Position numbers and translations under genes: made by a program. This document shows positions 11,049-41,143 of a stretch of 64,000 nt of DNA, in pieces. This DNA is from Schmidtea polychroa (lineage: Eukaryota). The stretch covers positions 68,386,001-68,450,000 of the forward strand of contig CM097888.1 in the NCBI GenBank assembly GCA_044892525.1, given 5' to 3'. Under the pieces are notes generated by a model. It did no database searches, had not been told where the DNA came from, and worked only from the letters and a program-made list of their open reading frames with translations. Each line of letters starts with the position of its first letter. Position 1 is the stretch's first letter.

Positions 11049-11599
11049 CTAAAATAAAATATAAAGTTTTATGATAAAAATTCCCTAATTCAATTTTAAA
11101 ATATTGCTAGTTGAATTACTATAGGTGTTGATCTTAAGCATCAAAAAAAAAGATATTCCACCTATTAGTATTACCTTTGCATTAAATAAGATTAATATAT
11201 CCTTTAATATTAATTTTTTAATCAATAGTGTTTTTTCATTTAATTTCATATAATTTTTTTTTAATTCTAATGTTGGGCTGAGTCGAAAATTTAATCGTTG
11301 AAAAATAAGAAAGTAGGGAAGTAGAACATTAAGAAAAATAAAAATAAAATAAATAAAATCAGAAATAAAATAGAATAAGATATAAGGAAAATAATAATTA
11401 AGACATAAGAATTAAAACAAAAAAATAAAATTAAGAAAAGATTAAAATAGAACAAGTTGACAAATAAATAAAGAGGAATTCAAGAAATAATAAGGAAATT
11501 AAGGAAATAAATAGAAAAACATATTAAAAATAAAGAAAATAAGGAAAAAACAACCTAAAAACAAGAAAATTATATTAAATTAATAGAAATAAGCGGTAC

Positions 11600-11741
11600 T
11601 CAACTCTGATTGGTCCGCACAAATAAGAATTTGATATATATACAACTACCAAAAACATTAAATTTACTGTTAACCCCGAGCATTTCATAGGTAAGAAAGA
11701 ATGTTTACTGTTTTGACTGTTAACCCCGAGCATTTCATAGG
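11600..11741 (+). promoter_or_regulatory. Candidate LTR promoter region with 26-bp direct repeat
   Basis: Reverse CCAAT (gattgg) near 11610, TATA-like gatatatatac near 11633, repeat actgttaaccccgagcatttcatagg at 11666-11691 and 11716-11741, donor-like ag|gtaaga at 11691. Function is inferred. Confidence 0.4.
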
Positions 11742-13789: not shown

Positions 13790-14578
13790 ATGTTCTCCAT
13801 TTCATTAGTATTATTTATAGCAAGCATGCTACCAACCACTAAATCAGCATTACGGCCGTGCTTCTCGTGCGCGGATAAAAATACGGTGATAAAGGACCTA
13901 CAAACTCAGATTGGACGTTACAAGAGGAAGATAGACGAGCTGGAAGGGACATGGTTTAGTCCCGCTCGGATGAAAGAGATCCAAAAGAAGCTCGATCGTA
14001 GCGAGCATTGCCGGGACGCGCTAATATCTGAGAGCCGTGCCCAAAGAAGTCTAATCAGAGAACAATCCGAGGCACTGCATAAGGTTTACGTGCAGGCGGC
14101 TACAACCCGAAAAATCGTGCAGATTCCCATCCGAGAGGCCGATGACATCTTTCCGCCTCATCACAACCTTTCCTCGAATCCATCTCCACCGTTCAAGAGA
14201 CCGTGCCGAGACTGCGTCGAAACCGAATGGTCCCCCAAGCGTCCAGATGTTGTCATCACGGGTACCAGTAAGCCCCCCACTGCTAGTCCATCTGTATCAG
14301 TCACCCTTCTGCAAGTGGCATCTTCAAGCAAACCCAAGCGCAAACAACTCTCTCGTGCAGAGCGCAAGAAGAGACAGCGCGAGCGCGCTACTGCAAAGCC
14401 AAACATCCCATCAATAGAGGACTCAACCAACGGTGGCAACTCTCACGTGTCCATCGACCTAACAACGGGACCCTCAGCGCGAATCATATCAGCCGCTGGC
14501 GTAAGGTGGGAAGAGAACGCTTCCGAGTTTTTCAACCTCGACGAATTATTCGCCGACACTGAATGGGAGAAACAATAA
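13790..14578 (+). CDS. LTR-encoded 262-aa protein of unknown function (coiled coil, two CxxC, basic NLS-like tract, acidic-aromatic tail)
   Basis: Long ORF in an otherwise AT-rich LTR, identical in both LTRs. Alternative start ATG 13826 follows tttatag; AATAAA overlaps the stop and recurs at 14702. Confidence 0.65.
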   Translation: MFSISLVLFIASMLPTTKSALRPCFSCADKNTVIKDLQTQIGRYKRKIDELEGTWFSPARMKEIQKKLDRSEHCRDALISESRAQRSLIREQSEALHKVYVQAATTRKIVQIPIREADDIFPPHHNLSSNPSPPFKRPCRDCVETEWSPKRPDVVITGTSKPPTASPSVSVTLLQVASSSKPKRKQLSRAERKKRQRERATAKPNIPSIEDSTNGGNSHVSIDLTTGPSARIISAAGVRWEENASEFFNLDELFADTEWEKQ

Positions 14579-15119
14579 AACCCCAGTGGCGGTCAGGATG
14601 AGGAACAAGGATCCGATCTATGTTGATTATGATGTTTTCTCTTCTTTCGACAAACATTAGTAAAATGTACAGCTGAATCCTTGTGTCATAACGTTGAAAT
14701 TAATAAATCTTGTTGTCTTACACGTTTTCGTTCATGAATAATTAGACTTTAATTAAGTGGGTTGAGTAGAGAACCCGCAAGATCTAGTGAGAATTTCCCA
14801 ATTTGCATTCAGCGAATCCTGATAGGTGGTTGTGTAAGGAAATGGACGTAAGCCCTTCTATCGGCAGTCGTGAATGGGAAGTCGAGGCCTCAGCAAGGAG
14901 TAGTTTTAAGGCAGAAGCTCACCTGCTTGCTGGCGTCTCGCCTGCATAGTGCAGTACCAACGTGAAGTGATTCACGGGCACTATGTTGGAAGAAAGTTAT
15001 GTGGGGTTTCACTCCAGGTTGACAAATCGGTGGCACCTTTTATTCGAGATGGACAATCAACCCTTAGACCCGCCAACATGGTAGAATGGTCAGCCGAGGT
15101 GTAACCCCAACATGATTTT

Positions 15120-15137
15120 TGGGGGCTCAGCCGGGAT
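15120..15137 (+). promoter_or_regulatory. Primer-binding site, tRNA-Pro-like
   Basis: TGGGGGCTCAGCCGGGAT matches the known tRNA-Pro PBS TGGGGGCTCGTCCGGGAT at 16/18; it starts 7 nt after the LTR end. Confidence 0.75.
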
Positions 15138-15454
15138 CTACAGTCGATCGAAACTTCTATTAACGAATGCGAAATTCACCGGGATTTTCATACAAAATTA
15201 AAGGGATTTATCACATCGATTTTCTATTTTCAACCGACCATTGCTTGACGAATGCAAAGTGACTATTGATTATTAAATTATATTAGGAACTAAGTAGAGA
15301 AAATCAAAATGTAGATAATAGAAAAATTAAGGATATATATAAATAAATGAGATAAAGTAGTCAAATTAAATAATTAACAATGGTTAAAGAAACCAATTAA
15401 CGAATTAACTATTAATTTACTACATATTATTAAAACATTACTTTTCCAACAGCT

Positions 15455-15940
15455 ATGACAGAATTCGCGAACCAAATGCAACAACTGCTCAAGTTTATCG
15501 ATATAGAAAACGACTCCCTAACAACACTGACGCATAAAAGAGAAAAAATCAACGCGATATTACTGCAAGCAATCGGACAAACACCAGTCGTACCTAATCA
15601 TATGATATTAGCCACAGGCCTAAGTCGCCCAGATGGAAAAATAAACCCCGAAACCGTATATCAGTGGTATCAAGAGAGATTGAACCACCCAACATTAAAT
15701 CTAGATTATCAGCGTCTAAAAGACTCACTAAATACAATACCAGATGCAATCGAACAAAAAATACAGGAAAAAGTTAACCAATTACGAACTTGTATAGCCT
15801 GCAAACTCCGTCCTATTCGCGTATTACTCTTGCCGTGTGGACACCTCAGTCACTGTGAAGAGTGTGTAAAAGACCTAAAAAGATGCACGATGTGCAAATA
15901 TGAAATAAAAGAGACCCATATGGTCTATTACGGCGAATGA
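15455..15940 (+). CDS. IAP-type C-terminal RING-finger protein (putative E3 ligase), no BIR domain seen
   Basis: CIAC-x9-LPCGH-x3-CEEC-x6-CTMC followed by IKETHMVYY at the C-terminus, the IAP/XIAP-like RING-HC pattern. Acceptor-like ttttccaacag ends 2 nt before the ATG. Confidence 0.85.
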   Translation: MTEFANQMQQLLKFIDIENDSLTTLTHKREKINAILLQAIGQTPVVPNHMILATGLSRPDGKINPETVYQWYQERLNHPTLNLDYQRLKDSLNTIPDAIEQKIQEKVNQLRTCIACKLRPIRVLLLPCGHLSHCEECVKDLKRCTMCKYEIKETHMVYYGE

Positions 15941-16517: not shown

Positions 16518-17071
16518 GAAGATTGAGCTGTTGAATAGTGCCAGCCAGTCGTAAGATCGAGTTGTTGAATAGTCCAACCGATCAGAAGGAAGAAGATTGA
16601 GCTGTTGAATAGTGCCAGCCAGTCGTAAGGTCGAGTTGTGAAAAGTCCAACCGATCAGGAAGGAGGAAGATTGAGCTGTTGAATAGTGCCAGCCAGTCGT
16701 AAGGTCGAGTTGTGAAAAGTCCAACCGATCAGGAAGGAGGAAGATTGAGCTGTTGAATAATGCCAGCCAGTCGTAAGGTCGAGTTGTGAAAAATCCAACC
16801 GATCAGAAAGAAGAAGATTGAGCTGTTGAATAGTGCCAGCCAGTCGTAAGGTCGAGTTGTGAAAAGTCCAACCGATCAGGAAGGAGGAAGATTGAGCTGT
16901 TGAATAGTGCCAGCCAGTCGTAAGGTCGAGTTGTTGAATAGTCCAACCGATCAGAAGGAAGAAGATTGAGCTGTTGAATAGTGCTAGCCAGTCGTAAGAT
17001 CGAGTTGTTGAATAGTCTAACCGATCAGAAGGAAGAAGATTGAGCTGTTGAATAGTGCCAGCCAGTCGTAA
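16518..17071 (+). repeat. Tandem array of ~7.5 x 74-bp units in the retroelement leader
   Basis: Units begin gaagattgagctgttgaatagt at 16518, 16592, 16666, 16740, 16813, 16887, 16961 and 17035 (partial). Each unit contains two related sub-repeats sharing G(C/T)TGTTGAATAGT. Confidence 0.95.
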
Positions 17072-18380
17072 AGGCCTAGAAAAGCGAGAGATAGCAGTTA
17101 AGCTACAATGAGATAATATTTAAATTACTAGTGATATGGAATATTAAAGCTAGCTAGAACAAATTGAATGTAATTTTGAAAATTCGAGTTTAGAGAGGAA
17201 ATAAACGAGCTCGTGGAAAAGAAAATAAGATTATAATGAAAAAGGAAAGGGAAGAAGGAAACGAATTAAAGAGATAATAGAAAATAAAGAATAGATGAAA
17301 TGATGATAATGAGTAAAGAGGAAAGTAACTAACTAATTAAAGGGATCCCAGTGAAGTAGAGAAACTCTACGGAATTTTTTTTTTTGGGTAAACCGGGAAA
17401 ATGTATTTTTACCGGTTCCAGAGTAGAACCGAGTGGGATAATAGTAAACACGAAAAGTAAAACAGCGACAACAGCGCAAAGGAATAAGAAAACGAAGGGG
17501 GGTAATAAGCAGAGACTGACAACGACCTATTTTTACTATAATTGATAACGAATAGATAATTATTACGACTTTATAGATAATTGTTACTACCCCATATAGA
17601 TAATTTAAAATCGACGGAAAATACGGGCTGATGGGATATTATAACCCGCAGAAAGGATTTCACAAAAAGATAGGGGAAGCACAAACAGAAACCTAAAAGG
17701 CGTCTGTTTTTGAATGTTGTAGAAAGAATGATGAAGTCGTGTAAGCAAATGCAACACGAGATCATTTTTTCATTTTAGATATCAAGCCAATCCAGCCAAC
17801 CAAGACAATCCAGAACCTGCACAAAAGGAATTCGAAGAAATCGACAATCAACCAAGGATAAATCCATTCAGAACCCGCACCGAGAGACACAGCAACCGGA
17901 AGACTCCAGAACGGAAGAAGTATTAGCAGCCATCTGCCAAGGATTAGTAAATCTCCTCAGGATCTCAGTAGCAGATTCATACAGAATATTTATCGAAGGA
18001 AACACAATCAGAACCGAACGCGTCCAATTCAATAGCCGCTAATTACCAAGAAGCGTAAGAAAGGAATCACGGATAAACCCAATCTTAGATCTTCTAGTAA
18101 GCCAGGAGACGTATTATTTTCAGGAGACGAATTACAACAACTCAAAAGAGGACGATCCATTAAACATCAAAGAGGAATATCACAAGGATCCAGAAGAACC
18201 AATCAAGTACCCATATTTGACCAAGAAAATCTCGGATATACCCCTAGTCGATCTCGAAGTAGAGAAAGTCTGTCCGATATCACTAATAGTTTAGCAACGT
18301 CAACCGAGGAGTTATCAGCCCAAAGTTTAGTCACATCGTTAGACAATTTAAAAGAAACAGACGAACCTAGAACACCAATC

Positions 18381-19286
18381 ATGACGAATGTCGTAAAAAC
18401 CGACGAGTATAAAGAGAAGTTCAGAGGAGAACCGTTCAACGGAAACGCAAACAAGCTAGCATCGTTCATAACTAATTTTGAAGTTTATATCACTGTGTGT
18501 GGATGGACACCCGAAGCAATTAGTAAAAGGATGCCGTTGTTTTTGTGCGATAGTGCATTAGAGGTATATTTAGAAGCTAAAGAGAGAGACACGAAATTAG
18601 AAAAGTGGGAAGATATTAAAACATTCCTGAAGAAAACCTTCGGAGCCAGTAAGCCAATCAACCAGGCGTTGGGCGAACTAGCAAATAGGAAACAAAGAGC
18701 AAACGAATCGATAACATTATATGCCAGTGAATTGCGGAGATTAGCGAAGAAAGCAATGAATGGAAAATTACCCGAAGAAAATCTGATCGGTTATTTCATA
18801 GAGGGATTACGCCGAGAAGAAGTAAGAGCCTCAGTAGGTTGTCAAATGTGCAAAACATTAGAGGAAGCCATAGATTGGGCTACAAGATGCGAGCTCCACC
18901 TTCCAGCTCAAATGAATATTATGCAAGAGGAGGGAAGGATAGCGACAGCAATAGCGAAAGCGGATAACGGAGATAACAACAATCAAGAACCGAAAATGAA
19001 TCAATTTATACCAGGAGCGCACCAAATTTTCAAACCACCACAAGGACGATCAAACGGGAATAATGGTAATCGTAACAACCCGAATAATGAGAACAATTTC
19101 AATAATCGGCGAAATATGAACGATAACAAGCAGTGCCGAACATGCGGTAAACCAGGACACTGGGACAGAGATTGTTATAGAAATTCAAATTGTAATCGTT
19201 GCGGACGGCGTGGACATACCGAAAATGTATGCCAATTGCGAGGCTGTTTTAACTGTGGTCAGCCAGGTCACATCTCCAGAGATTGC
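18381..19286 (+). other. Gag capsid-like domain and three CCHC zinc knuckles
   Basis: Retrotransposon-gag pattern (WEDIKTFLKKTF, RKQRANESITLYASELRRLA, FIEGL); knuckles CRTCGKPGHWDRDC, CNRCGRRGHTENVC and CFNCGQPGHISRDC at 19134-19286. Confidence 0.92.
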
Positions 19287-22200
19287 CGAGAAAGGGGCCA
19301 ACAACAACGACCACCACAGCGAAATAATAATTATATAGCGAATCCGCAACGACAAAGTAACCCTAACGAAGGAAAACAAATGAACGTTATGCAGGAAATT
19401 TCGCAGATGAAACAGATGATGCAACAAATGATGAGACCAAGACAAGAATCAGCACCACAACAAACCCAGAATATACGTATGATGAGGAGTACCGAAAATC
19501 TCAACAATTATGAAGTGCATCAACATGTACAAGAATGGCAAAGGCTACAGGCCGAGGAAGAGAGGATAAAACAAGAACGCAACCAACAACGACAAGAACA
19601 ACCATTGCGAATAAATATGATGAAGTTAGTAAAAGACATGAAGAGCCAGTATTGCTACAATTACGGGAAAAGCCCAAGGGTAGTACCCATGACTGAACCA
19701 GAAAAGGTAAAAGAAATAACAACGGAAATGAAAACAGAGAATTCAACCACGATTTTAAAAGGAAACCAGAGAATTCAGAAAATATTCTGGAAAAAGATAA
19801 AAGATAAAATCGAAAAAGAACATAATAAAGCGAAAGCCGAGACAGAAGATGAAAATAACAAGAGCAAGGAACAAACCAGTCAACTAAACCACCAAATGCT
19901 ACAGGAATTAGAATCAGAAGAAACAACGATATTCGAAAGAAAGAAACTAAAGAGAGTACCAAGGATGAGAAACTTGCAAATCAATATGATGAAAAGGACA
20001 AAAGATGTAGCATCGTCAGACGAGGAAGAAGACTATGTAAGTAGTTTGGGTGGAGAAATACTACAGCTGAATGAAATAAGCGAACCTCCAAAAGGGGAAA
20101 TCAAAGAGGAAGAAGGCGAAAGCGAGATAACCAGCGAAAGTGAAGACGAGGATATCGAAATAAAGTTGAGAAAAGGGAAGGAGGAAGCGATAAAACAAGT
20201 AGCGGAAATACTCCCAGTAGTAGTGAGGAACCAAGAGTTCATTGACGTAATACCATTCAGGCGATTCGTGCAAAAAGTGATGAAATTGGAAAGAAACGAG
20301 AAAGATTTAATACCAAACGAGGAAAAATCAATTATAAAAAATTATATGGAAAAAATGAAGCAGGCCGATACCACGCGGTATGTAATAAAAATCGGAACGA
20401 GTAGAGGACTTGAAAGAATGTGGATAAAAAATACAGTCACCGACGAACTTTTCGATTGGATACGAGAGCATTTGGGAAGTTCGAGAAAGAAAGAATATCT
20501 GTATCAATACCAAGGAGAACAGATCAAACCAGATATGCACTTAGTAGATGCACTAATATGGCCAGGAGAAACGCAAATACTGAAGTTGCATAAAGAAAAA
20601 CAACCAGCCAACCTTTACGATTGGGCTAAAGATGCCAAGGCAGAATATGATTTTAATATCAAATTGAAATTAGAACAAATAAAACAATGTACTCTGAGAC
20701 GAAACCTGGATAAGCTGATCAAACAAATTCAAGAACAAGTAGAAGACAACTGGGATTTACTCATCACCAGACGAGCCCCAGCCATGTACGAACTAATGAG
20801 CCGGTTGCGAGATACAGAAATGCTCCGAATGAGTGATTGGAGAACCATAAATTTGATCCACAAATATGGAAGGTTAAAAGAAACCCAGCCACAGAGGTTG
20901 GAAATAACCATATGGTTACCGAACGAAGAAAAACGACGAATAAAAATGAGCAATCAGAGTACAGTAGATGACTTGGTATCAAAAATAAACCAAGAGATAA
21001 CGGAAAAGGTACGTAGCGAAAGTAGTGATGGTATGGTGGATGATGTAGTCATGATGTACGATAAGATAATATTACGAGCGGAGGACGACACCTCGTTAAG
21101 CGAAATGGGTATGTGGGACAATCACCAGATAATCAGGATAGTACCAATGGATGAATTTCGAACAAGAGATGTAACCTATCAAAAAGAAATACGAGACCGG
21201 ATGAAAACGTTATATCAAAAATCTACGGAAATAATTAAAATCCACCAACAATGGTTAAAAGAAAAAGAACTACAAGGAAAAATCACGAAATTAAGCACCA
21301 GATCCTGCAGACGAACCCCATGGGAAAGAGTGTGGAATGCAGAAAGTAAGGAATGGGAAATCCGGAAAGGAACCTTCGTGGAAACAGACATTGGTGAGAC
21401 AGAAAGTGAATCGGAGGAAGAAGAAGAGGAACCTCCAAAATATGAAGAGGAAGCAAGGGAACAGACATCAGATGACGAAGGCGAGACGGATGTCACATCA
21501 GAAAGCGAAAATGAAGCGAGACATATTCATGCAATGAGGAAAAAGGAACGTGAATATGCTGATATGGACGGCGAGGAAGCGACGGAAGCAAGAGAACGAG
21601 AAGAGAAAGAAAGATATAAACAATTAGGCGATATCTTAGCAATGGGAGCGAAAAATCAAAGACGCCAAGTAGTAGCGTTGGCTAACATCATCTTAAAGAC
21701 ATCAGAGGACATCCACAATCTGAGAGGAATGGCAAAGGCAATAGAGGAATACCGGCAATATAATGAATGGTATCCAGAACAGCTAGAACAAATTATTCGA
21801 AAATGGAGAAATCAGGAATGGGCACAAGACACCCAGGAGAGGTATCACATCCGAATCAAGTATCCAGACAAGAGCATCGAGGAACTAGAGGTGCATCCAA
21901 CAACAAAAATTAGAGAATTAAAAAAGAAATTAGCATATGAAACTCCATTCCATCTGCAACTGTTCGGAAAATCACTAGACGATAATGCAGACGTCGGGAT
22001 AACCCCCATGAGATTGGAAGAGACAAATGTATTAACAATGGCAGAAACGTTGGGAAAACCGTTAAAAAGGAAAAGTAAAATTATTAAACCAACACAAGGC
22101 AGTTTGAGTACTCCAAGTCCGAACAAAGCACCAAGTAAATCTAATGAAACTGAAGAAGTTGAAGAGATAATCCTGGAAGATAGTGACGATGAACCAGGAG

Positions 22201-31200: not shown

Positions 31201-32234
31201 TACCTTTCACTAACAAAGAAATAGAGACAAATATGATATTAATGATAATTATGCTTACCATGATAGAGTTAGTAACAGCTCAGGGAGGGACGAGAACGAT
31301 AAAAGAAACCAAAGAAGCGGAGAATCAAGATAGCAAAGAGGATGAACTAAAACAAGAAAAGAGAAAGCAAGCACAAGAGCAGCAGTGGGATTTAAAGGAA
31401 GAATGGGACTTAAAGGAAAAGTGCATACTAGGAAGATGCATGTCTAGAGCGTATCAGAAATTAGTACTGATAAATGAGGACACAGAACCAATAACAGAAG
31501 TAAGAATACAAGAAGCATACCGAAATCGAGACGGGAAGAGAATAACGAACGTCAAAGGAAAAGAGGTACACCTAGGAAAAGGTGGTGAAGTAGTAATAAC
31601 GCAGATCCAACCTAGAAAAGAGCACAAAGTCTGTATTTCAAGATTAGGACCAGGTGAGAGATGCCATCAATATGTGACGCAGCAGCAGCCGCCGAAAGAA
31701 TACACGGTTTGTATCTGGAGGAATGAATCAAAAAGAGAATGCCGACGATACCCGGGGAAAAGAGGAAAGAAAAGAAAAAACCACGACGAAAAGAACGAAG
31801 GAGGAAAGCACAAGAAAACTGGTGAGGAAGCTCAGGACAACTATGTTTCGGAGGAAGAGATGGAAAAAATACAAAAGATGGCAAAGGAGGGTATGAACGA
31901 GGAAATAGCAAGAATACGGGAAATGATGAAAGGAAATGGCAAAAGAGGAAACGAGAAAAGTACAGAAGCGATATCAACATTAACAAACAAGGAAAAACCA
32001 GAGAGTATAAGCGTGAAGCAGATGATGTGGATCAGTGGGATAATAATAACAGGGGCATTCCTAATCATAACGGGGGGAACAATAAAAATAATTAAAGATA
32101 AACGACATCGCGGAGAACTAGAGATGACTCGAATCAGAAATTTCCAACATCGAGTGAAACGACCAAGTGATATCAAACAAGAACAGTGGGTGGAGGCCTG
32201 GAACGCTCAGCGCCCTCCAAACTCACGTATATAG
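18381..32234 (+). CDS. 4,617-aa single-frame polyprotein: Gag-ZnK3-Ubl3-Bcl2-like-Env-PR-RT-RH-IN-ANK-membrane protein
   Basis: Uninterrupted ORF with all catalytic motifs intact: DTG (25611), YIDD (26829), RNase H TDAS, and integrase zinc-binding plus DVVGP/DQG/ERFN. Confidence 0.97.
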   Translation: MTNVVKTDEYKEKFRGEPFNGNANKLASFITNFEVYITVCGWTPEAISKRMPLFLCDSALEVYLEAKERDTKLEKWEDIKTFLKKTFGASKPINQALGELANRKQRANESITLYASELRRLAKKAMNGKLPEENLIGYFIEGLRREEVRASVGCQMCKTLEEAIDWATRCELHLPAQMNIMQEEGRIATAIAKADNGDNNNQEPKMNQFIPGAHQIFKPPQGRSNGNNGNRNNPNNENNFNNRRNMNDNKQCRTCGKPGHWDRDCYRNSNCNRCGRRGHTENVCQLRGCFNCGQPGHISRDCRERGQQQRPPQRNNNYIANPQRQSNPNEGKQMNVMQEISQMKQMMQQMMRPRQESAPQQTQNIRMMRSTENLNNYEVHQHVQEWQRLQAEEERIKQERNQQRQEQPLRINMMKLVKDMKSQYCYNYGKSPRVVPMTEPEKVKEITTEMKTENSTTILKGNQRIQKIFWKKIKDKIEKEHNKAKAETEDENNKSKEQTSQLNHQMLQELESEETTIFERKKLKRVPRMRNLQINMMKRTKDVASSDEEEDYVSSLGGEILQLNEISEPPKGEIKEEEGESEITSESEDEDIEIKLRKGKEEAIKQVAEILPVVVRNQEFIDVIPFRRFVQKVMKLERNEKDLIPNEEKSIIKNYMEKMKQADTTRYVIKIGTSRGLERMWIKNTVTDELFDWIREHLGSSRKKEYLYQYQGEQIKPDMHLVDALIWPGETQILKLHKEKQPANLYDWAKDAKAEYDFNIKLKLEQIKQCTLRRNLDKLIKQIQEQVEDNWDLLITRRAPAMYELMSRLRDTEMLRMSDWRTINLIHKYGRLKETQPQRLEITIWLPNEEKRRIKMSNQSTVDDLVSKINQEITEKVRSESSDGMVDDVVMMYDKIILRAEDDTSLSEMGMWDNHQIIRIVPMDEFRTRDVTYQKEIRDRMKTLYQKSTEIIKIHQQWLKEKELQGKITKLSTRSCRRTPWERVWNAESKEWEIRKGTFVETDIGETESESEEEEEEPPKYEEEAREQTSDDEGETDVTSESENEARHIHAMRKKEREYADMDGEEATEAREREEKERYKQLGDILAMGAKNQRRQVVALANIILKTSEDIHNLRGMAKAIEEYRQYNEWYPEQLEQIIRKWRNQEWAQDTQERYHIRIKYPDKSIEELEVHPTTKIRELKKKLAYETPFHLQLFGKSLDDNADVGITPMRLEETNVLTMAETLGKPLKRKSKIIKPTQGSLSTPSPNKAPSKSNETEEVEEIILEDSDDEPGERSPLLVRWPTGAEMWTNNQPSTSYQQPTKLNIEEIIDNTTETETDEQFQKQREPTKVTPESQTDKIIDEWNEWLRNNDSSLPRTDNERNPNYENTREAGTMMEKRAKGRPKKQGEKSEFKTKEQLKQEQGQVRLEKLDKIVWDLKEAQPTIERGEKWIRELLKDMLIITNPQLRRLWQRKVASTEARQLWHTISGIIPKLIKEKTKTTKTDWDETKRVIEQLTTNANDDEHHLVVITYLMYNLMGLAARKIPNKQFANHVEMTVSIIENTIEPHIIRAGGWKRLIQAPRKNEQERSMQVRLKKLLNELEWELPMKDPASRKASINSLMMTMMIWMLCTSGATGFTIYDCDNMIMRDKYSLRDIEECRQASPNKLDIVRTKVTYHVYQESDFIRTQARECVVSKKVLAYYCGQYSYSTLILPGLDKEIVSIQREDCKELFRTGALKMHNGVTIHGQTGMIKTESVYVSGKVKSSDGSCNGGTYTIRGEVISGVVVIESYTVELKEYEAQFDANNYQMKTNPTCRATENVCRTGVSTIIYEANTQKCRLQLLKSALFNEVKGEIYENENDEDGNDRVRMRNGKPMPPSPREKRLSTQKTPTALITDDPDLGMRFIKEKETTKCDSIVYKTNYAGIYMSRQIIDRAVGKIATEDVKLYLYANNKMDFLFHRGQTTLQKVYYDLIQNDCSLNKEILKTKLAIAITHPDNTMPSLPFPDGHFGRMVGEVMYTYQCTKTYARMPEKSILPEKRCANELEIRYKGQNRFVQPVTRIMNPVGFYPNLFNCSNAYGPLYERPDGKWMMLPGKTISEEPKKFGLIELATELDFKPIDVSNGGMYSPEDLETARLNVLFPARRESILSNMVTITGGTNYQSGPNYELLLSPDHFQQATSNMMKAMWGRFLVFGKMMAGILGIILIIQIVRVILTQMLACFDIYKREKKVNWKMIVGFLPFLAKTMVLHGHSKDIHRIKRLIKILTKIKGTDEEVGRRFRKVMYDEATRRQLKKNKPKFLDRFRSQSSNSDSDDDDNGNDKCLYPNRNPNEKPMETAPYWEKEKTNTWIANGSYIPPDIVGPQTALTMTQNMYPQLPSQPGMHYMPTRRTKSVDQAEDVRTIAAMSLPGGPAVTVMIQINGKETNAMIDTGANVSAIAINQIPSKHWKDIESTTIHIIACSKETVDVVGRWWTTLRYQDNEIETYLAVIPKLSVPCIIGTDLMPELLKEIVIDLTTMCLKDKTGRICKMNAVIRCPEKIIVPAKSQMICQIKVDTGMEGEVIFEPSKSFEKRRELPLAREIITINQEGVIPLNITNFEEEDKIIYENEKLGRLTPMMDIELPKVTNEMIKDDELWTIDSMLLTNDEKKKLHRLLVEYKDIFAISDLDLGTCDVTLHAIPLIDETPIALRPYKLAEMQKEIAETEVQKMLDAKVIEPSCSPWQFPVVMVKKKDGTQRFCIDYRKLNAVTKRDTYPLPDINEMLLMLQGAAYFTSLDLKSGYWQIKVKDEDKEKTAFTLGRDLYQFRKMPFGLTNAPASFQRCMNFVTHGIKQCMVYIDDLLIYSATFEQHLEDIRNVFIRLRQWKLKLKPSKCDWAKEKVTFLGHIVSAKGKEPDPRNIEKIKTCPAPKTVTQVQEFLGLCGYYRKFIKNYAGIAKPIQELVKKDISFLWGKEQQEAFETLRDKLIEAPILVHPDFKKPFLLATDASGYAAGAILGQLDDEGKERVIGYYSRTFKKHEKNYSVTEREALAIIQAIKHFRYLLWGHEICITTDHQPLVWLGQHKEASSRLMRWAMQLQEYSPFIKFKAGRANANADCMSRFIFPDLVDSEMQRICLIVAEDLDFCQLRKDQQEDAELKQIIDYIKTGQTDVYAKDQKLKEHMDKHRHRYIIEKDWLLIMDGEKRLMCIPENRRKELLTQYHDGRLGGHMSSKKTLARMKQKYFWPTLTEDVTEWVKNCLTCATRKNTGSKWKAPLTPMPVPIEPMTMISMDVVGPLPESDKGNVYILVITDFLTKFPEAFAMPDQKAKTIAKILVEEICCRYGTPKQILTDQGTNFMSEIMSEVTNYFKIAKLRTSPYHPQTNGMTERFNGTLIQMLSNYVDRHQRDWDEYINLCLMAYRMSIHASTKMSPFKLMYGRECNMPMDLEYQPPISQYMEIDDYVTKFKERMQEIWETAGLNIKFYQESYKDLHDRKKNVKQHTFQTGDWVMIETPELIPGTTKKLQRNGKGPYEILFVGETNVRVKLVNNPFTRPIYVNVARCKSIPKTATSQPEGRTLTTRSQTYRMNMMQQLAEPITGRLGIQPSEAEKIVKEVKIKIPGWAKDRLDFEILGGLLTMIENYANRERTHPLLRVVKSQWPILFTITDHYGDTPLHKLMKVGNNEQILETIEAFHDCKRSTEQTNNQGYTPLMIAANRGKTKDIITALLDTGSKITTQDHERKNALHHAIRGRSTEAFTSLMELLSYEDNREVGNMYDGLLTAIKEKLTTITGILITWRNPIRNDYMINVNEAFTRGENTLMREAMKGHHLFEIPNQLLERGIKFTNHKDEQLTKKRIDTFEKSLFQFTNQVRHKYWETVSVSYMMDTMNNIRENYMDIIQILTAEERINNPNGKKTKIRYEKSRESKSTTNQTVTNNVIETKSMSIDQEAIIRKAKEVFFEEMLELPDEIILSKIIKAVHTYARDQTTGLDIGKIKTFLPRAFTMVTKDSRTPLQQAILAAKENRAITIMRILGEMGEETNTKNEQGETAMMYAAITKIHPKTLHILHQSGSKLDERSNEGNSTLDWATIQPNLEMIRFICKNATEEEVENMCKNTSQFQWNTVRKNLEAMKLLLTWRVPPNNKYAINVNEFYENGENAMVKNTLTKGGTPKIILIVLNREDLKFTQNQNEQQRIGKHRRMQLRELVKEWNRKRHAATGRKEFEFEAKLARNRVLTAYRRLLNDINVEDDILNDSEGDKHDDNNGKDRKEDKEKREPEEGKPENKDSDTKREGNSPRTKTKEEEKSNNGKQRVCLPFTNKEIETNMILMIIMLTMIELVTAQGGTRTIKETKEAENQDSKEDELKQEKRKQAQEQQWDLKEEWDLKEKCILGRCMSRAYQKLVLINEDTEPITEVRIQEAYRNRDGKRITNVKGKEVHLGKGGEVVITQIQPRKEHKVCISRLGPGERCHQYVTQQQPPKEYTVCIWRNESKRECRRYPGKRGKKRKNHDEKNEGGKHKKTGEEAQDNYVSEEEMEKIQKMAKEGMNEEIARIREMMKGNGKRGNEKSTEAISTLTNKEKPESISVKQMMWISGIIITGAFLIITGGTIKIIKDKRHRGELEMTRIRNFQHRVKRPSDIKQEQWVEAWNAQRPPNSRI
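23181..25080 (+). other. Envelope glycoprotein (chuvirus/Monjiviricetes-like class III fusogen) embedded in the polyprotein
   Basis: Hydrophobic signal LMMTMMIWMLCTSGATG, then FTIYDC...YSLRDIEEC...YQESD...ECVV...YCGQYS. Cysteine-rich ~560-aa ectodomain, furin-type REKR (23964-23975), TM MMAGILGIILIIQIVRVIL from 24912. Confidence 0.72.
25560..28960 (+). other. Pol: aspartic protease, reverse transcriptase, RNase H, integrase (Ty3/Gypsy)
   Basis: AMIDTGA; SPWQFPVVMVKKKDGTQRFCIDYRKLN; LDLKSGYWQI; MPFGLTNAPASFQR; YIDD; LATDASG; TDHQPL; H-x6-H...CLTC; DVVGP; TDQGTNF; ERFN; GKGPYEI (GPY/F). Confidence 0.97.
29256..30760 (+). other. Two ankyrin-repeat blocks fused downstream of integrase
   Basis: GDTPLHKL, GYTPLMIAA, KNALHHAI; then RTPLQQAI, GETAMMYAA, GNSTLDWA. 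Both blocks end in a related motif (LITWRNP..Y.INVNE...GEN vs LLTWRVP..YAINVNE...GEN). Confidence 0.85.
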
Positions 32235-32394: not shown

Positions 32395-32754
32395 ATGGAT
32401 CAAGGAAATAACGAAATGAACCACAATACAGTAACTGAAGAATTATGGAAGCAACAATGTGCCGTATTAGCACAATTAGTGTCCAATTTGCAAGAACAAG
32501 GACTGACGATGCACAGAAACCTGATCGAGAGTATGAACAGAGGATTTAGTTATTTGAAGATAATTGAAGACCAGAGGTTAAAAATCGAACAAATGCAAAG
32601 AGAGATAGAGAGGATAACCCAATATAGCCGTCGACAGGAAATTGAAATAGACCGAATGAGGGAGGAAGCAGAACAGACAGAAATAGAAGACTGGTCGGAA
32701 TGGCTAATGAATAGAGAGGAGAGCGGGCACGAAGCCGACTCTTCCGAACCCTAA
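32395..32754 (+). CDS. Small coiled-coil accessory protein (~119 aa)
   Basis: First ATG at 32395 within the listed ORF; heptad-rich E/Q/R sequence with the same codon style as the rest of the element. Confidence 0.6.
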   Translation: MDQGNNEMNHNTVTEELWKQQCAVLAQLVSNLQEQGLTMHRNLIESMNRGFSYLKIIEDQRLKIEQMQREIERITQYSRRQEIEIDRMREEAEQTEIEDWSEWLMNREESGHEADSSEP

Positions 32755-32839: not shown

Positions 32840-34228
32840 ATGGATAAACGACAAAGAGAAGAGTTCAGAGAGATTGTCGAGCAAGTCCGAAAATCTACAA
32901 CGATCAGAATACACAAACATGTTATGTGCGGAATATGTGAAAAGTTGTTAAAGGAACCTCACCAAACGCAATGTGGATGCAGAGTATGTAAAGAATGTAT
33001 CAGTGAAGCAATAAAGAATAGACCACAGAGGTGCCCGGTGTGTAAAGAGACACTAATATCGAGTTTAGAAGACACTAACGAGGATAAAGCCGCAGTGAAA
33101 GACATGTTAAACACCAACCTGGGATGCAAAAATGCCCCATGCGAATGGAAAGGAGTAATATGGAAGGTAGTACAACATATGGGAGAATGTATGTACAGAA
33201 TTGGCCAGTGTGAAAGGTGCCATAAAACCATTCGAGCAAGCGAAGAAAAAGAGCATCAAAGGCAGTGTGAAGAGAGATTGGAAAGATGTGAACACTGTGG
33301 AGAAATAGATACGTGGATAAATCTCACCCTCAAACATCACAATGTCCAAGAGGAGAGAGTATGTGCAGAGTTCAGTGGGGAATGCCCAAACGGATGTAAC
33401 CAAGGGGAAATAATGAAGGTGGCACAGCATCTAAGGGAATGCGCAAAGAAAAGAATGACATGTGTACTAGGTAGATGGGGTTGTCAGAAACTACTACACC
33501 GAGGTGAGTTACCACATCATTTAGTAGAAAATGCTTCAACTCACGCAGAAATGTGGTCGACTGCGCTACAAGAAAGCGAAGAGAAAGTAAAACAAATGGA
33601 GATAGAGATAACATCGTTGAAAGTGTTAGTCAAAGAACTACTAGAAGAAAGGGAAGCGTTCGAAGAAGCCCGAGCAAACATAAAGATGCAAATAAACCGA
33701 ACAGAAATCAGTAATAATCAGGCCAAGGAGCTACATCAGAAAATACGGGAAATAAATCTAAATGAGATAACCCCAACAGCACCCTACATATGGAAAATAA
33801 CGGGAGTAAAAGAAAGAATACGAAAAGCAAAAACCGGAGAAGAGACAAGAATAACAAGTCCTACATTCCATTCTTGGAAAAATGGGTACAAAATGAAAAT
33901 GAAGGTATATCCCAACGGGGACGGAACCGGATTGGATACGCACTTTTCGATTTTCTTTCTGTTATGTAAAGGAGAATACGACGAAATATTAGAATGGCCG
34001 TTCCAGGCAAAAATCGATATTACTCTGATGAACAACCAAAGTATACATGAGCAAAGCTTCAAAACAACGGGGAATCAAATAGCTTACCAGAGGCCCCTCA
34101 ACGAAGAAGGATCAGCAACAGGAGCACCTACGTTCATCTCACAACAAAGAGTAGAAGATATGGCGAGAAATGATACCATATATATCAAGATGACCGTGAG
34201 GAAAGAGGAGAAGGGTAGAACGGAGTAA
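32840..34228 (+). CDS. Full-length intronless TRAF-family protein (RING, TRAF zinc fingers, coiled coil, MATH), TRAF2/3/5-like
   Basis: RING CGIC..LLKEPHQTQCGCRVCKEC..CPVC; zinc fingers CKNAPCEWKG...H..EC, CEHC, CPNGC; MATH YIWKI...SPTF...GYKMKMKVYPNGDGTGLDTHFSIFF..KGEYDEILEWPF...NDTIYIK. Confidence 0.95.
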   Translation: MDKRQREEFREIVEQVRKSTTIRIHKHVMCGICEKLLKEPHQTQCGCRVCKECISEAIKNRPQRCPVCKETLISSLEDTNEDKAAVKDMLNTNLGCKNAPCEWKGVIWKVVQHMGECMYRIGQCERCHKTIRASEEKEHQRQCEERLERCEHCGEIDTWINLTLKHHNVQEERVCAEFSGECPNGCNQGEIMKVAQHLRECAKKRMTCVLGRWGCQKLLHRGELPHHLVENASTHAEMWSTALQESEEKVKQMEIEITSLKVLVKELLEEREAFEEARANIKMQINRTEISNNQAKELHQKIREINLNEITPTAPYIWKITGVKERIRKAKTGEETRITSPTFHSWKNGYKMKMKVYPNGDGTGLDTHFSIFFLLCKGEYDEILEWPFQAKIDITLMNNQSIHEQSFKTTGNQIAYQRPLNEEGSATGAPTFISQQRVEDMARNDTIYIKMTVRKEEKGRTE

Positions 34229-34366: not shown

Positions 34367-35476
34367 ATGAATAAATTCCTTTTCATAATAAAAAGATTAA
34401 TCGATGTCTATGATTTAGAGATGACACAAGAGAAAATAACCGAAACTGCGATAGCCCCAACCAATGTCAACAAGACACAAATTCCCCGAGAACATAATAA
34501 AAAATGGAACAAAGTAATGTTCCAACTAACTAATCTCACCCGAAATCACATCGAAGAAACTAGAGAAGATGAGAATAGTCAATACCAATGGTTAATACAC
34601 AACTTAAGAGCGGAAGCAGAAGCATGCAAAAGAGCATCAAAATGGGCGTCACTAGAAAATACCCGCCAAGAAGCACACAGCCACTACTTAAAGCAGCTAG
34701 TGCAGGAAGCGAGAAAAAGACTTACCGATGAGAACACCAAGCGCGAAGCGGAAAAACAAATAGAAGACAGGAAAATGATGCACTTAGTGGCAGAAGCGAG
34801 AAAATGGAAAAGACAAAACAGAGAAATGAAAAAAGAGATGAAAGAATTGCCCATGAGACTCGGATATGAAAGCGAACAAGGTAAATGGGAGGAGAATTTA
34901 ATAATAAAGGAAGAATTGAAAAGGTTGAGAAAGGTCGCCGCCCGAAGCCAAACCTGGCAAACAAAGGCTATGGAGTTTGAGCGACATTTGGCAATGAAGT
35001 GCGACATAAGAGAGCACGAGAATGCCGCAATGGAAGAGATGATAACCCAACAAGCGGGACGGGTTGTGGAATTAGTAAATCAGGTAGAAGAGATGAAAAG
35101 AGACCTTAATGGATTACAAGGATCGCTGGAACAAAGAAACATGGTCCTAGCGGGAAAAAACAGAAAATTAGAAAACGAAAGGAAAATGTACACCGAAAAT
35201 ATTAAAAACTTAGAAATAGAAATTGAAAAATGGAAGGGCGACGAGAAAATCAAGGCCCTAGACAAACAGATAGAGGCGAAAGACGAAGAGACAAGGTATC
35301 TCACCTATCTGCTCGACGAGGAATTGAACATCACTCGAGCTCTAAGAGACGAAATTAATGAATTGAGAGCTCAAATCCCCCAATATTACCTACCATACGA
35401 CCCTATTGCGATACAGTTACATCCCGCGGTCGATAGTGATGAAGGTTATGTAGGCCAGGAGGAAACCTTCGTATAA
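34367..35476 (+). CDS. 369-aa coiled-coil accessory protein
   Basis: Long intact ORF with extensive heptad E/K/R/L content and no recognised family; an alternative start lies at 34421. Confidence 0.75.
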   Translation: MNKFLFIIKRLIDVYDLEMTQEKITETAIAPTNVNKTQIPREHNKKWNKVMFQLTNLTRNHIEETREDENSQYQWLIHNLRAEAEACKRASKWASLENTRQEAHSHYLKQLVQEARKRLTDENTKREAEKQIEDRKMMHLVAEARKWKRQNREMKKEMKELPMRLGYESEQGKWEENLIIKEELKRLRKVAARSQTWQTKAMEFERHLAMKCDIREHENAAMEEMITQQAGRVVELVNQVEEMKRDLNGLQGSLEQRNMVLAGKNRKLENERKMYTENIKNLEIEIEKWKGDEKIKALDKQIEAKDEETRYLTYLLDEELNITRALRDEINELRAQIPQYYLPYDPIAIQLHPAVDSDEGYVGQEETFV

Positions 35477-35555: not shown

Positions 35556-35557
<2 letters not shown>

Positions 35558-35613
35558 AAAGTATTGTAAAAGTATTCAAGGGACTGTAACCCAAACTATT
35601 AAATTTTATATCA

Positions 35614-36366
35614 ATGTATACGTATAAGTCGCACTATAGCGCACCATTAACTGTACATATTATAGATATGAAAATCGAGGAAATGATAGAAATTATGAGC
35701 GACGTAGAAGAGGGAGAGATTGAGGCAGAAACAACAGAAACACAAACGCTAAAGGCCGAGTTACGGGAAGAGAAATACGAAAACGGGAGATTAATAAACA
35801 AATACCTAGAGGACCGGAAAATGATAAAGGTGTTAAAGAAAGAGTGCGAAGCGTTGGGGGAAATAAAAAGAGAAACGGAAGAGGAAAATGAATGGCTACA
35901 CGAACAAAGGAAGCGAGGGAAAAACTGGGAAAAGATAGCGGAAGAACTATGGAAAGAGAGGGCAAGCTTCAAAGCAAAGGAGGTAATCCAAGACTACTGG
36001 AAAACTGAAGCGAAGGAGCGCCAAACAGCTATAAATAAATTAAAACGACAACTAGAAGAAAACCAACGGGAAAGTAAAGAAATGAGGAAGTGGGTCCGCA
36101 AATATAGAGAAATAGAAAGAAAACATCAACAACAAAATTACCTGCAAGAAAACGAACAAGATCTCCTACAAATCGAGCTAAAAAGAAACCTTGAAAAGAA
36201 AAGGGAAGAAATTAGACGCTTGGAAAAAGAAATTAGACATCTAAAGAGAGAAGCCCGTGAAAAAGACCGACAATTGGAAATGCTGCCCGAGTTAAGACAC
36301 AGGGTAATTAAAGCAGAGTCCACCTTGATGAGAATCGGCGAAAATAATCCAAATCAGAACCATTAA
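35614..36366 (+). CDS. ~232-250-aa coiled-coil accessory protein
   Basis: Intact ORF rich in E/K/R heptads. The likely start is ATG 35668, whose context (tgtacatattatagatATG) resembles that of the TRAF start (tgtacatataattatagaATG). Confidence 0.75.
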   Translation: MYTYKSHYSAPLTVHIIDMKIEEMIEIMSDVEEGEIEAETTETQTLKAELREEKYENGRLINKYLEDRKMIKVLKKECEALGEIKRETEEENEWLHEQRKRGKNWEKIAEELWKERASFKAKEVIQDYWKTEAKERQTAINKLKRQLEENQRESKEMRKWVRKYREIERKHQQQNYLQENEQDLLQIELKRNLEKKREEIRRLEKEIRHLKREAREKDRQLEMLPELRHRVIKAESTLMRIGENNPNQNH

Positions 36367-36406
36367 ATTAAGGGTCATTAAAACCAATTGTAAATAAACA
36401 TAATGA

Positions 36407-37075: not shown

Positions 37076-37301
37076 ACTCTAATTCAAACATTTGTGTTAT
37101 TATATGTGGAAACTTTTATTGTATGTACCAACTATCACCTTAAGTGATACTTGCTTGGTCTTGCTTTGACCTTGATCTTACAATAAAATTTTTATCATTG
37201 TTGTATAATTTTCCGTGTTCGTGTTATATTTTTTTTTGAATGAATGAATTAAGTTAATTATGCAATTGCGGGACGCAATTTTGATGGGTCCCCGAGTGAT
37301 T

Positions 37302-40300
37302 TGTTGGGCTGAGTCGAAAATTTAATCGTTGAAAAATAAGAAAGTAGGGAAGTAGAACATTAAGAAAAATAAAAATAAAATAAATAAAATCAGAAATAAA
37401 ATAGAATAAGATATAAGGAAAATAATAATTAAGACATAAGAATTAAAACAAAAAAATAAAATTAAGAAAAGATTAAAATAGAACAAGTTGACAAATAAAT
37501 AAAGAGGAATTCAAGAAATAATAAGGAAATTAAGGAAATAAATAGAAAAACATATTAAAAATAAAGAAAATAAGGAAAAAACAACCTAAAAACAAGAAAA
37601 TTATATTAAATTAATAGAAATAAGCGGTACTCAACTCTGATTGGTCCGCACAAATAAGAATTTGATATATATACAACTACCAAAAACATTAAATTTACTG
37701 TTAACCCCGAGCATTTCATAGGTAAGAAAGAATGTTTACTGTTTTGACTGTTAACCCCGAGCATTTCATAGGATCGACACTACTAGCCAAGCAACCGTCA
37801 TTCAGAAAACTCCACAACTATTCAAAACCAGTTCAGAGACCGAAATACCATTCATCACAATAATCGACATCCAACGGACCACCATTAGAACTATTTGGAA
37901 CGAACAACATTGAATTTTGACTCAGCCTAACAATAGTAAGGGGTATTTCATTTGTTTATAGATTTATTTAAGTATTTGCAAAGCTAATAATAATGTTAAA
38001 TATTAACGATTAAACATTTTAGTTAACTCTCTTCATTTGATTCTCCATTTTAATAACTTTAACGTATTGATGGAATTTGTATTATTTAAGTATTTCAGAA
38101 TCAATAAAATATTTTTATCCAGATGTCCGTATTTTATTTGAATTAAAGATTTTATGAATTTTCATTTAACGAGTAACGTGGAGTTGAGATACTCCATGTC
38201 ATGGTATGAGGTGCCTTCGGGAGCTCAGCCGGTGGACATGGAGTATTTCAATCGCGCAGCTAGATTGGGCCGAAATGTGAAGGCTTCTTCACGGGTCCTA
38301 TCGCTGAAGATGCGACTAAATTATCACAATGGGGTATGGATAAAAAATAACCGGTAGACAATGATTTCACAAAGATAGTCATACGAATGAAGGGATTTTC
38401 AAGGATTTGCACAGTGATTGAGGGCGTCGCATTCTTCTTTCGTCAAGTCGTTTTCGTAAGTCTTACCCCTATTGAAAAAAGAGATCCAGACCACGATTTA
38501 GTGAACTTCGTCAAAAATAACAACATCTCATAGTACGCTTCATCTGGAAACATGGTTTTATCAAATTAATTGCGACAACGTCTATTTGCCGGACTCAGTA
38601 GAACTAAATTCGTATGAAATTCCATTATCATAGACCCAATGTCATCTAACCTGTCCAGATTGTATGTCAGGTTACGAAAGTATTCTAAAAACTTTAACTA
38701 ACTCGAAACTATAAAATGCGAGATTCTACGAAAACCTCTCTAGTATTATAATCAGAAAGTTTTTATAGACTTAGTTATTTCAAAAATTATAACCAGGTAA
38801 AATATCACCAAATTTAATTAATAACATTTATTTCTACAATAAGAGCCAGGTCATCACTGTATATATCCAAATTATTGAACCTGAGAGAAAAGGACAGGTT
38901 TCATCGAGACGGCATTACATCTGAATAGGAAAATCCGAGTAGAATGACGAGAGTAGTAATATGCTTCAGTATTTGGTAGAATTATTCCCTCGACGATCAC
39001 TGAAAAGATCCAATAAATTTCCAAACGATGGTGATCATTCACACAAGTTGATAAGGGTAAAATTCCGCGATGAGAACTGGCGGTAGCATAAATCATAACT
39101 CAAATAAATCACTGTGCAGAGAAAATCATACGACAGCAGGATCGATAAAATCACCGTGAAAATGGCATACACCAAGTGAGTGAGATAAGATAGTAGCCAT
39201 ACACGAATCCATGTGGTGAGAGCACAGAATATCAGACTAGCATACATAGTAGTCGCGACACGTGACATTCACAATAGGTCGATAATGTAATCAACCAGTC
39301 GACAGCAGTATCCGTAAATTTGGATATGTTATGACCGATGGGATTTTCCATGAGGGTGTTAAAGTAATGGCTGATGTAAACTCATCACATATTTTCAGAC
39401 CAATGGTAGACAACATTGATAATCACATTCACTACCGAATTAAAAGTGCACTTCCAATAACAAATTTCGAATCAAAAATATGTTGAGAGCGATAGTAATT
39501 TGTTTTTAATAAATTAAAATAGATAACATATAGCAAGGTTTGGTCGCATACTATAATGTCCCTCTACTAAAGCATTATTATATTATTTCACCAATATTAT
39601 ATTTACACCCTATCAATTATTACGTCCCTCATGCATACAGTTAGATCAATAGATAGTCAAAGTTAATAACATGCGTCAAGCCGATGGCATTTGGTTAAAT
39701 AAACCGTTTTAACAACTAAGATCCGTAGTAAAACCGGATTGTAGAATAAGTTTTCCTTCTTTTCGACGGTCAAGTATCCACGAATGGACGCGGGTCGTAT
39801 CTAATTTATTCTAAAATCGTATGTTCTCCATTTCATTAGTATTATTTATAGCAAGCATGCTACCAACCACTAAATCAGCATTACGGCCGTGCTTCTCGTG
39901 CGCGGATAAAAATACGGTGATAAAGGACCTACAAACTCAGATTGGACGTTACAAGAGGAAGATAGACGAGCTGGAAGGGACATGGTTTAGTCCCGCTCGG
40001 ATGAAAGAGATCCAAAAGAAGCTCGATCGTAGCGAGCATTGCCGGGACGCGCTAATATCTGAGAGCCGTGCCCAAAGAAGTCTAATCAGAGAACAATCCG
40101 AGGCACTGCATAAGGTTTACGTGCAGGCGGCTACAACCCGAAAAATCGTGCAGATTCCCATCCGAGAGGCCGATGACATCTTTCCGCCTCATCACAACCT
40201 TTCCTCGAATCCATCTCCACCGTTCAAGAGACCGTGCCGAGACTGCGTCGAAACCGAATGGTCCCCCAAGCGTCCAGATGTTGTCATCACGGGTACCAGT

Positions 40301-41143
40301 AAGCCCCCCACTGCTAGTCCATCTGTATCAGTCACCCTTCTGCAAGTGGCATCTTCAAGCAAACCCAAGCGCAAACAACTCTCTCGTGCAGAGCGCAAGA
40401 AGAGACAGCGCGAGCGCGCTACTGCAAAGCCAAACATCCCATCAATAGAGGACTCAACCAACGGTGGCAACTCTCACGTGTCCATCGACCTAACAACGGG
40501 ACCCTCAGCGCGAATCATATCAGCCGCTGGCGTAAGGTGGGAAGAGAACGCTTCCGAGTTTTTCAACCTCGACGAATTATTCGCCGACACTGAATGGGAG
40601 AAACAATAAAACCCCAGTGGCGGTCAGGATGAGGAACAAGGATCCGATCTATGTTGATTATGATGTTTTCTCTTCTTTCGACAAACATTAGTAAAATGTA
40701 CAGCTGAATCCTTGTGTCATAACGTTGAAATTAATAAATCTTGTTGTCTTACACGTTTTCGTTCATGAATAATTAGACTTTAATTAAGTGGGTTGAGTAG
40801 AGAACCCGCAAGATCTAGTGAGAATTTCCCAATTTGCATTCAGCGAATCCTGATAGGTGGTTGTGTAAGGAAATGGACGTAAGCCCTTCTATCGGCAGTC
40901 GTGAATGGGAAGTCGAGGCCTCAGCAAGGAGTAGTTTTAAGGCAGAAGCTCACCTGCTTGCTGGCGTCTCGCCTGCATAGTGCAGTACCAACGTGAAGTG
41001 ATTCACGGGCACTATGTTGGAAGAAAGTTATGTGGGGTTTCACTCCAGGTTGACAAATCGGTGGCACCTTTTATTCGAGATGGACAATCAACCCTTAGAC
41101 CCGCCAACATGGTAGAATGGTCAGCCGAGGTGTAACCCCAACA
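37302..41143 (+). repeat. 3' LTR (3,842 bp)
   Basis: Direct repeat of 11271-15112, followed by TSD CTAA. Confidence 0.97.
39821..40609 (+). CDS. 3' LTR copy of the 262-aa LTR-encoded protein
   Basis: Translation identical to 13790-14578. Confidence 0.65.
   Translation: MFSISLVLFIASMLPTTKSALRPCFSCADKNTVIKDLQTQIGRYKRKIDELEGTWFSPARMKEIQKKLDRSEHCRDALISESRAQRSLIREQSEALHKVYVQAATTRKIVQIPIREADDIFPPHHNLSSNPSPPFKRPCRDCVETEWSPKRPDVVITGTSKPPTASPSVSVTLLQVASSSKPKRKQLSRAERKKRQRERATAKPNIPSIEDSTNGGNSHVSIDLTTGPSARIISAAGVRWEENASEFFNLDELFADTEWEKQ

Follow-up and report, generated by a model that had tools for sequence, protein, structure and literature searches.

The window analysed here is a 64,000-nt stretch of the Schmidtea polychroa genome (GenBank assembly GCA_044892525.1, contig CM097888.1, positions 68,386,001 to 68,450,000). 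It contains a giant Gypsy retroelement at 11271-41143 on the + strand, with exact flanks and exact long terminal repeat (LTR) ends. The element is 29.9 kb long and intact, has all of its coding on the + strand, and is a further family of the already published Burro kind, neither Burro1 itself nor a new element type. It integrated recently: the 5′ and 3′ LTRs differ by one substitution over 3,842 nt, and a CTAA duplication flanks them, in agreement with the intact element with 3.8-kb LTRs of a first-pass annotation made from the DNA letters. Its features are the following (ORF, open reading frame; aa, amino acids; TM, transmembrane segment; PR, protease; RT, reverse transcriptase; RH, RNase H; IN, integrase).

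11267-11270 and 41144-41147, +, target-site duplication CTAA
11271-15112, +, 5′ LTR, 3,842 nt, TG...CA
13826-14578, +, LTR ORF, 250 aa from a conserved Met; identical frame in the 3′ LTR at 39857-40609
15120-15137, +, primer-binding site, 18 nt, complementary to the 3′ end of host tRNA-Pro(TGG)
15455-15940, +, RING ORF, 161 aa, helical N-terminus and C-terminal cIAP/XIAP-class RING (Pfam E 8.3e-11)
16518-17071, +, 74-bp tandem repeat, 7.5 copies, in the non-coding leader
18381-32234, +, single polyprotein, 4,617 aa from the first Met
18381-19286, +, Gag, capsid and three CCHC zinc knuckles (Pfam)
20376-22055, +, three ubiquitin-like segments (~20376-20600, 20895-21146, 21843-22055)
22596-23135, +, predicted Bcl-2-fold domain, followed by the hydrophobic Env signal
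23181-25070, +, Env, internal signal, 14-Cys ectodomain, TM at 24912-24968 (Pfam, hydropathy)
25569-28400, +, Pol, protease, RT, RNase H and integrase in Gypsy order (Pfam)
29304-30560, +, two ankyrin blocks (Pfam Ank_2 7.4e-17)
31233-32231, +, predicted type I membrane protein, signal-like segment, ectodomain, TM at 32037-32093 (hydropathy only)
32395-32754, +, coiled-coil-type ORF, 119 aa; 31% identical homolog in the Burro1-like family
32840-34228, +, full-length intronless TRAF, 462 aa, RING, zinc fingers, coiled coil and TRAF1/2/3-like MATH
34367-35476, +, coiled-coil-type ORF, 369 aa; 33% identical homolog in the Burro1-like family
35614-36366, +, coiled-coil-type ORF, 250 aa
36407-37075, +, predicted surface protein, 222 aa, signal and TM (hydropathy only)
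37302-41143, +, 3′ LTR, 3,842 nt

The element has the hallmarks of Ty3/Gypsy (Metaviridae): LTRs with TG...CA ends, a target duplication, a tRNA primer site and the order PR-RT-RH-IN. No BEL/Pao-specific family occurs among the 18 Pfam families matched. The inverted ends of the LTRs read TGTTGGG/CCCCAACA. A TATA-like box lies near 11635 in the 5′ LTR, and a ~24-nt sequence is repeated 50 nt apart at 11670-11740, with GTAAG after the first copy; the sister LTRs show the same duplicate arrangement in other sequence. Ahead of the 3′ LTR, no purine-rich tract was found at 37270-37301. Its place is taken by the motif CGCAATTTT...GGG.CCCCGAGTG, common to the Burro1-like family described below. At L089 (G000:C1 ~130.9 Mb), tRNA-Pro(TGG) genes stand in a tandem array of 475-bp period, and the tRNA pattern has 2,164 matches genome-wide.

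The polyprotein lies in an open frame of 4,732 codons starting at 18036 and is ordered gag-Ubl-Bcl2-env-pol-ankyrin-membrane protein (Ubl, ubiquitin-like). Among solved structures its RT-RNase H is nearest to Ty3 (E 1e-93), and Pfam finds no dUTPase-like segment between PR and RT. Env, first annotated as a fusion glycoprotein, is of the Monjiviricetes/gB type (Pfam, E 8.5e-70), with a single NxS/T sequon in the ectodomain. Ubl-like segments were proposed originally; of the three listed above, two have fair support and the first is weak, a predicted strand-helix pattern being its sole basis. The third matches Pfam ubiquitin at E 0.004. One segment of ~85 residues gave, from a low-confidence model, 88 structure matches at E<=0.001, those listed being led by ubiquitin and SUMO folds; the output does not name this segment, which by model confidence is most likely the second.

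A helical-bundle Bcl-2 fold is predicted with moderate confidence. The Pfam match is weak and under the cut-off (E 0.041), and a 5-row profile of Bcl-2 domains from three element families ranked Bcl-xL first (E 0.006). With the predicted model (pLDDT 64), 42/42 listed Foldseek matches were Bcl-2-family structures, the best at E 0.07 and with TM-scores up to 0.64, none reaching E<=0.001. Profile and model thus uphold the fold of the Bcl-2-like segment, with the BH2-like GGW kept, but its BH1 NWGR groove motif is lost. Among the 60 of 159 ankyrin matches listed, the blocks match generic ankyrin and DARPin repeats, and no IkB appears. The blocks stand as annotated; these matches give no sign of IkB mimicry, and the label of NF-kB modulation finds no support here, planarian RHD genes being described as highly divergent and without a clear NF-kB homolog (PMC13563047). 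An RHD search was blank, but its control likewise matched nothing.

The TRAF downstream of pol is full-length, as proposed, with RING, zinc fingers, coiled coil and MATH all found. Its MATH (Pfam E 2.3e-27) scores ~100 bits with TRAF1/2/3 against 44 with TRAF6. The RING ORF is nearest to cIAP/XIAP RINGs in a profile comparison that included one BIR-RING row. It had been called IAP-type; the cIAP/XIAP-class RING holds, but the BIR needed for IAP membership was not found in the 8 element ORFs scanned by Pfam, the RING ORF included. The two additional membrane proteins of the first-pass annotation correspond to the end of the polyprotein, where the same topology is predicted in both other families (Burro1-like and 17-kb), and to the 222-aa ORF; hydropathy points to both. 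The LTR ORF, the three coiled-coil-type ORFs and the 74-bp tandem array had gone unnoticed. The LTR ORF combines a coiled coil, a basic patch resembling a nuclear localization signal and an acidic-aromatic C-terminus, and a Pfam scan gave no match to a known family. It is kept from one subfamily to another, in part also in the Burro1-like family, and might, at a guess, be a putative transactivator.

The element is multi-copy, with dozens of near-identical copies in the genome. The best 92 of 2005 TRAF candidates were scored, at 95-100% identity, and 91/92 have no stop. For RING the best 150 of 3583 candidates were scored (70 at ≥98%; 144/150 without stop), and for Env the best 78 of 2775 (99-100% identity; 77/78 without stop), 47/78 of which lie in the same 4,732-codon frame. 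Selection was gauged on separate stretches fetched from 10 diverged sisters, with pairwise values for 7 and pooling over 10. Every ORF, all cargo included, is under purifying selection, and all values are below neutral. Pooled ratios of nonsynonymous to synonymous differences (pN/pS) are 0.05 for RT, 0.04 for IN and 0.07 for env; 0.10 for Bcl-2, 0.07-0.17 for the Ubl segments and 0.13-0.15 for the ankyrins; and 0.16 for TRAF and 0.12-0.19 for the coiled-coil ORFs. RING gives 0.25 pooled (pairwise 0.09-0.20) and the 222-aa TM ORF 0.48 (pairwise 0.25-0.48). The LTR ORF gives 0.32 pooled, at saturated synonymous sites, and 0.15 in the sole unsaturated pair. The genome-wide copy search and per-ORF dN/dS proposed with the first-pass annotation thus bear out its view that the cargo is functional for the element: sister copies carry it too, and there it evolves under purifying selection.

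Env constraint, measured over 631 codons, is indistinguishable from that of RT+IN (Fisher p 0.34) and tighter than that of the polyprotein linkers (pN/pS ~0.20; p 2e-6), which argues that Env residues are kept, beyond a mere open frame. Because Env is constrained, cell-to-cell infection is the likeliest reading, with a role in assembly in cis as its rival. In that rival, a purely intracellular retrotransposon would use Env and the two membrane proteins for assembly or trafficking anchored at the endoplasmic reticulum (ER), with no cell exit. The fusion of Env in frame and 1:1 with Gag and Pol, by which its folding could be needed in cis, would suit such an element, as would the single sequon; PMC13524379 moreover notes that transmission has yet to be demonstrated for env elements outside Drosophila. 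We consider it unlikely, given that Env is constrained like RT and IN, belongs to a family of fusion glycoproteins, and recurs in three element families, the lowest identity being 34%.

Modules, both LTR and cargo, are swapped among co-active subfamilies. The sisters are 94-98% alike in the core and ~65-80% in the alignable LTR. LTR pairs are 99.5-99.98% identical in 9/9 sisters with both LTRs fetched; that they are near-identical despite divergent subfamily LTRs indicates that several subfamilies were recently active. Synonymous divergence (dS) across sisters is 0.02-0.32 in RT and IN, 0.7-1.0 in RING, and up to 1.3-1.8 in the second coiled-coil and TM ORFs. The 222-aa TM ORF is the fastest-evolving, with sister alleles 40-92% identical. 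Within the TRAF, the MATH part (33779-34225) differs from the sisters by 9-11% and the RING-zinc part by 1-5%, which suggests that the MATH segment was swapped.

The accessory ORFs cannot be reached by scanning on the genomic RNA. A splice-donor-like ag|GTAAG lies at 11691 in the LTR and recurs in 4/5 of the sister LTRs compared; sequences resembling splice acceptors stand ahead of the LTR ORF, RING and TRAF starts. TGTA is enriched in the inter-ORF spacers, on the sense strand only, both in the window family (17 against 7.9 expected, p 0.004) and in the Burro1-like family (31 against 13.1 expected, p 0.002). AATAAA or ATTAAA is present in 6/6 spacers of the former and 6/7 of the latter. Since poly(A)-type signals follow each accessory ORF and an acceptor-like AG precedes several of the ATGs, we infer that these ORFs are read from separately processed mRNAs. 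A more ambitious reading would make the element a living complex retrovirus with enveloped spread, an LTR transactivator and six operon-like accessory genes, each with its own poly(A) and expressed by cis-splicing or spliced-leader (SL) trans-splicing. Its subfamilies would trade cassettes (LTR, RING, surface protein) on a near-identical gag-env-pol core, and the element would keep cells alive with no BIR. We regard this proposal as possible but tentative, with the odds against it.

Two other families of the same genome are related to the element. A BIR search of the genome scored at least 150 matches, most within a ~392-aa ORF of a Burro1-like BIR family (L041-L068; e.g. G000:C1 ~10.229-10.265 Mb), four elements of which were compared. 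These have ~5-kb LTRs, an upstream RING ORF and a polyprotein that contains a MATH and spans 4,791 codons where intact, followed by a full TRAF, the BIR-RING ORF, and coiled-coil and membrane ORFs. Identity to the window element is 85% in RT, which serves as our proxy for Burro kinship, 76% in IN, 57-58% in env and 50% in gag. The two families share the upstream RING ORF (28%), the LTR ORF (28%), the downstream full TRAF (29%), the coiled-coil ORFs and the tRNA-Pro primer site. The MATH inside the polyprotein, the 392-aa BIR-RING ORF and the ~5-kb LTRs are found only in the Burro1-like family. The latter fits what has been published on Burro1, and the window family is its BIR-less, MATH-less sister. 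The element TRAFs of the two families group at 89/89 (unstarred). Host-type TRAFs (L092-L111) comprise a number of full-length ORFs, long and in a single frame, together with a large split-gene cluster on C2.

The second family is 17 kb long (L070-L072, L075-L077), with identical 1.07-kb LTRs, a 3,053-aa gag-Bcl2-env-pol-membrane polyprotein and a second ORF of ~700 aa without Pfam match; it is 50% identical to the window element in RT and 34% in env. Because this family has only that core and one ORF, the gag-Bcl2-env-pol-membrane core has a wider distribution than the giant cargo. The Bcl-2 fold and GGW motif persist in all three families. Bcl-2-like matches also occur in multi-copy elements close to Polinton-like genes (L088:4761-5216, L079, L081, L087), where the match spans one TAG in many copies; the nearby genes include an A32-type ATPase, an integrase, a weak PolB and an endonuclease VII-like match.

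Burro1 (GYPSM1) and Burro-2 to -4 were described from Schmidtea mediterranea (Jurka 2007, Grohme 2018, as described in PMC6431247). Like them, the window element has a size of ~30 kb, multi-kb LTRs, a polyprotein of ~4,700-4,900 aa and tandem repeats in the leader, and it shares with them a gag with three CCHC knuckles, Ubl, BCL2-like, env, PR-RT-RH-IN, ankyrins and TRAF/MATH. Size, polyprotein and cargo order thus confirm the giant Burro-type Gypsy identity first suggested. Unlike Burro, it has neither a polyprotein MATH nor a BIR, and its TRAF stands downstream of pol as a separate, full-length ORF; in the D. tigrina Burro, MATH is described on an upstream ORF. The dUTPase-like segment of Burro between PR and RT has no Pfam counterpart here. 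The window family, set apart by these descriptions, may still be the ortholog of Burro-2, -3 or -4. The first-pass annotation had considered the cargo new unless already described for a Burro family. PMC6431247 largely removes this novelty: it lists MATH_TRAF_C, BIR, ankyrins, BCL2-like and Ubi2/SUMO-like domains, sets env between gag and pol, in frame and with mononegavirus matches, and proposes Burro elements as proviruses meddling with apoptosis and ubiquitination.

Six S. mediterranea GAG-ENV-POL errantiviruses of the HSV/gB type, Smed_errantivirus_1-6 (PMC13524379), have gene order and env class in common with the window element. By eye, its Env is nearest to no. 5, with shared YTVELKEYEAQFD and cysteine pattern, and all six env rows differ from the window sequence. 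Burro, Bcl and TRAF are not mentioned in the main text of that paper. The literature searched describes no conserved LTR-encoded protein, no LTR or cargo module swapping and no spacer signals, nor a RING-only ORF, extra membrane proteins or dN/dS values, all of which the primary Burro papers may cover. The primary study of the Burro1 B-IAP is reportedly that of Lee et al. (Dev Cell 2026).

B-IAP, with BIR and RING, is reported second-hand to protect stem cells from caspase-mediated apoptosis (PMC13465017). The window ORF has the RING only; both are element-borne IAP-class RINGs. By extension, the window element could be host-beneficial, its cargo protecting stem cells so that the host tolerates the family. 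Its IAP-class RING, Bcl-2 fold and TRAF are indeed under constraint. Nevertheless such mutualism seems quite unlikely here: the BIR-RING ORF of the Burro1-like family is missing, BURRO1 is a target silenced by PIWI (PMC8532177), and constraint between element lineages gauges element replication. Selection was measured on a replicating element, and therefore selfish benefit is the default.

We favour, at a probability of roughly 60%, a young intact Burro Gypsy element that likely buds as enveloped particles and so passes from cell to cell in the worm, and whose TRAF, BIR-less RING and Bcl-2 domain likely blunt stress and death signalling. The hydrophobic segment behind Bcl-2, at once Env signal and Bcl-2 anchor, would lead the polyprotein into the ER, so that Env faces the lumen while Gag-Ubl-Bcl2 and Pol-ankyrin lie on the cytosolic side. 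A last signal would open the second surface protein, with which the polyprotein ends; cleavage by signal peptidase and by the protease that the element encodes would release the products. The accessory ORFs would come from their own processed mRNAs, and Env would mediate membrane fusion. TRAF could compete as an adaptor, or serve as a ubiquitin ligase, in host TRAF/TAK1/TBK1 pathways, stress and death pathways of this type being described in the host (PMC4993586, PMC13563047). The RING could act on host IAPs or other substrates, without caspase binding. The cargo would most likely dampen TRAF/TAK1/TBK1-type stress and death signalling. Infectivity and the keeping alive of cells are both what we infer from these data.

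A number of points weigh against this reading. Env constraint would be equally expected if Env served only membrane targeting or polyprotein assembly. The BIR-RING gene with the reported anti-death role is absent from the window element, the Bcl-2 BH1 is degenerate, and Bcl-2 and Ubl are just marginally tighter than the linkers (p 0.045 and 0.050). The copy counts overstate intactness because only the best-scoring candidates were scored; the 10 sisters were chosen from TRAF matches, and the RING ORF is absent from the stretches fetched in 2/10 of them (one sister partial). As to expression, there is no clear acceptor before the polyprotein Met, CC1, CC2 or the TM ORF, AATAAA alone is not above base composition in the spacers (p 0.66), and GT..AG ends occur in 0/10 of the joints listed.

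The loss of the Bcl-2 BH1 NWGR and the RING without BIR would also suit a repurposing of the death-pathway-like domains, in which the Bcl-2 fold, Ubls, ankyrins and RING would serve structure or assembly, or would counter silencing or innate sensing rather than apoptosis. The presumed receptor-binding positions of the TRAF seem, in an alignment, to differ from those of TRAF3. In addition, planarian TRAFs are induced downstream of TBK1 (PMC13563047). We hold this to be very unlikely, as the Bcl-2 fold and GGW are kept in three families and the Burro1 precedent, known second-hand, is anti-apoptotic (PMC13465017). The element adds a well-preserved, recently active Burro family in which selection on env and on every cargo ORF supports, as population evidence, the published hypothesis. 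Since this family thrives without the BIR-RING gene, it offers a natural comparison for the reported Burro1 mutualism. If particles and the accessory expression scheme were demonstrated, the element would be the invertebrate equivalent of a complex retrovirus, and in a regeneration model that is tractable.

Elsewhere in the window, an ARMT1-like phosphatase frame of host type lies 2.1 kb upstream of the element, at 8381-9160 (+). A further host-type frame, at 47117-48382 (-), is malate/lactate dehydrogenase-like. A 634-codon open frame at 50243-52147 (-) carries a Spin-doc zinc finger and DUF4371 and is hAT/SPIN-transposase-like. Finally, inverted-repeat pairs resembling miniature inverted-repeat transposable elements or palindromes are found at 56056-57104 (145-nt arms), 59979-60219 (118) and 42773-43119 (43).

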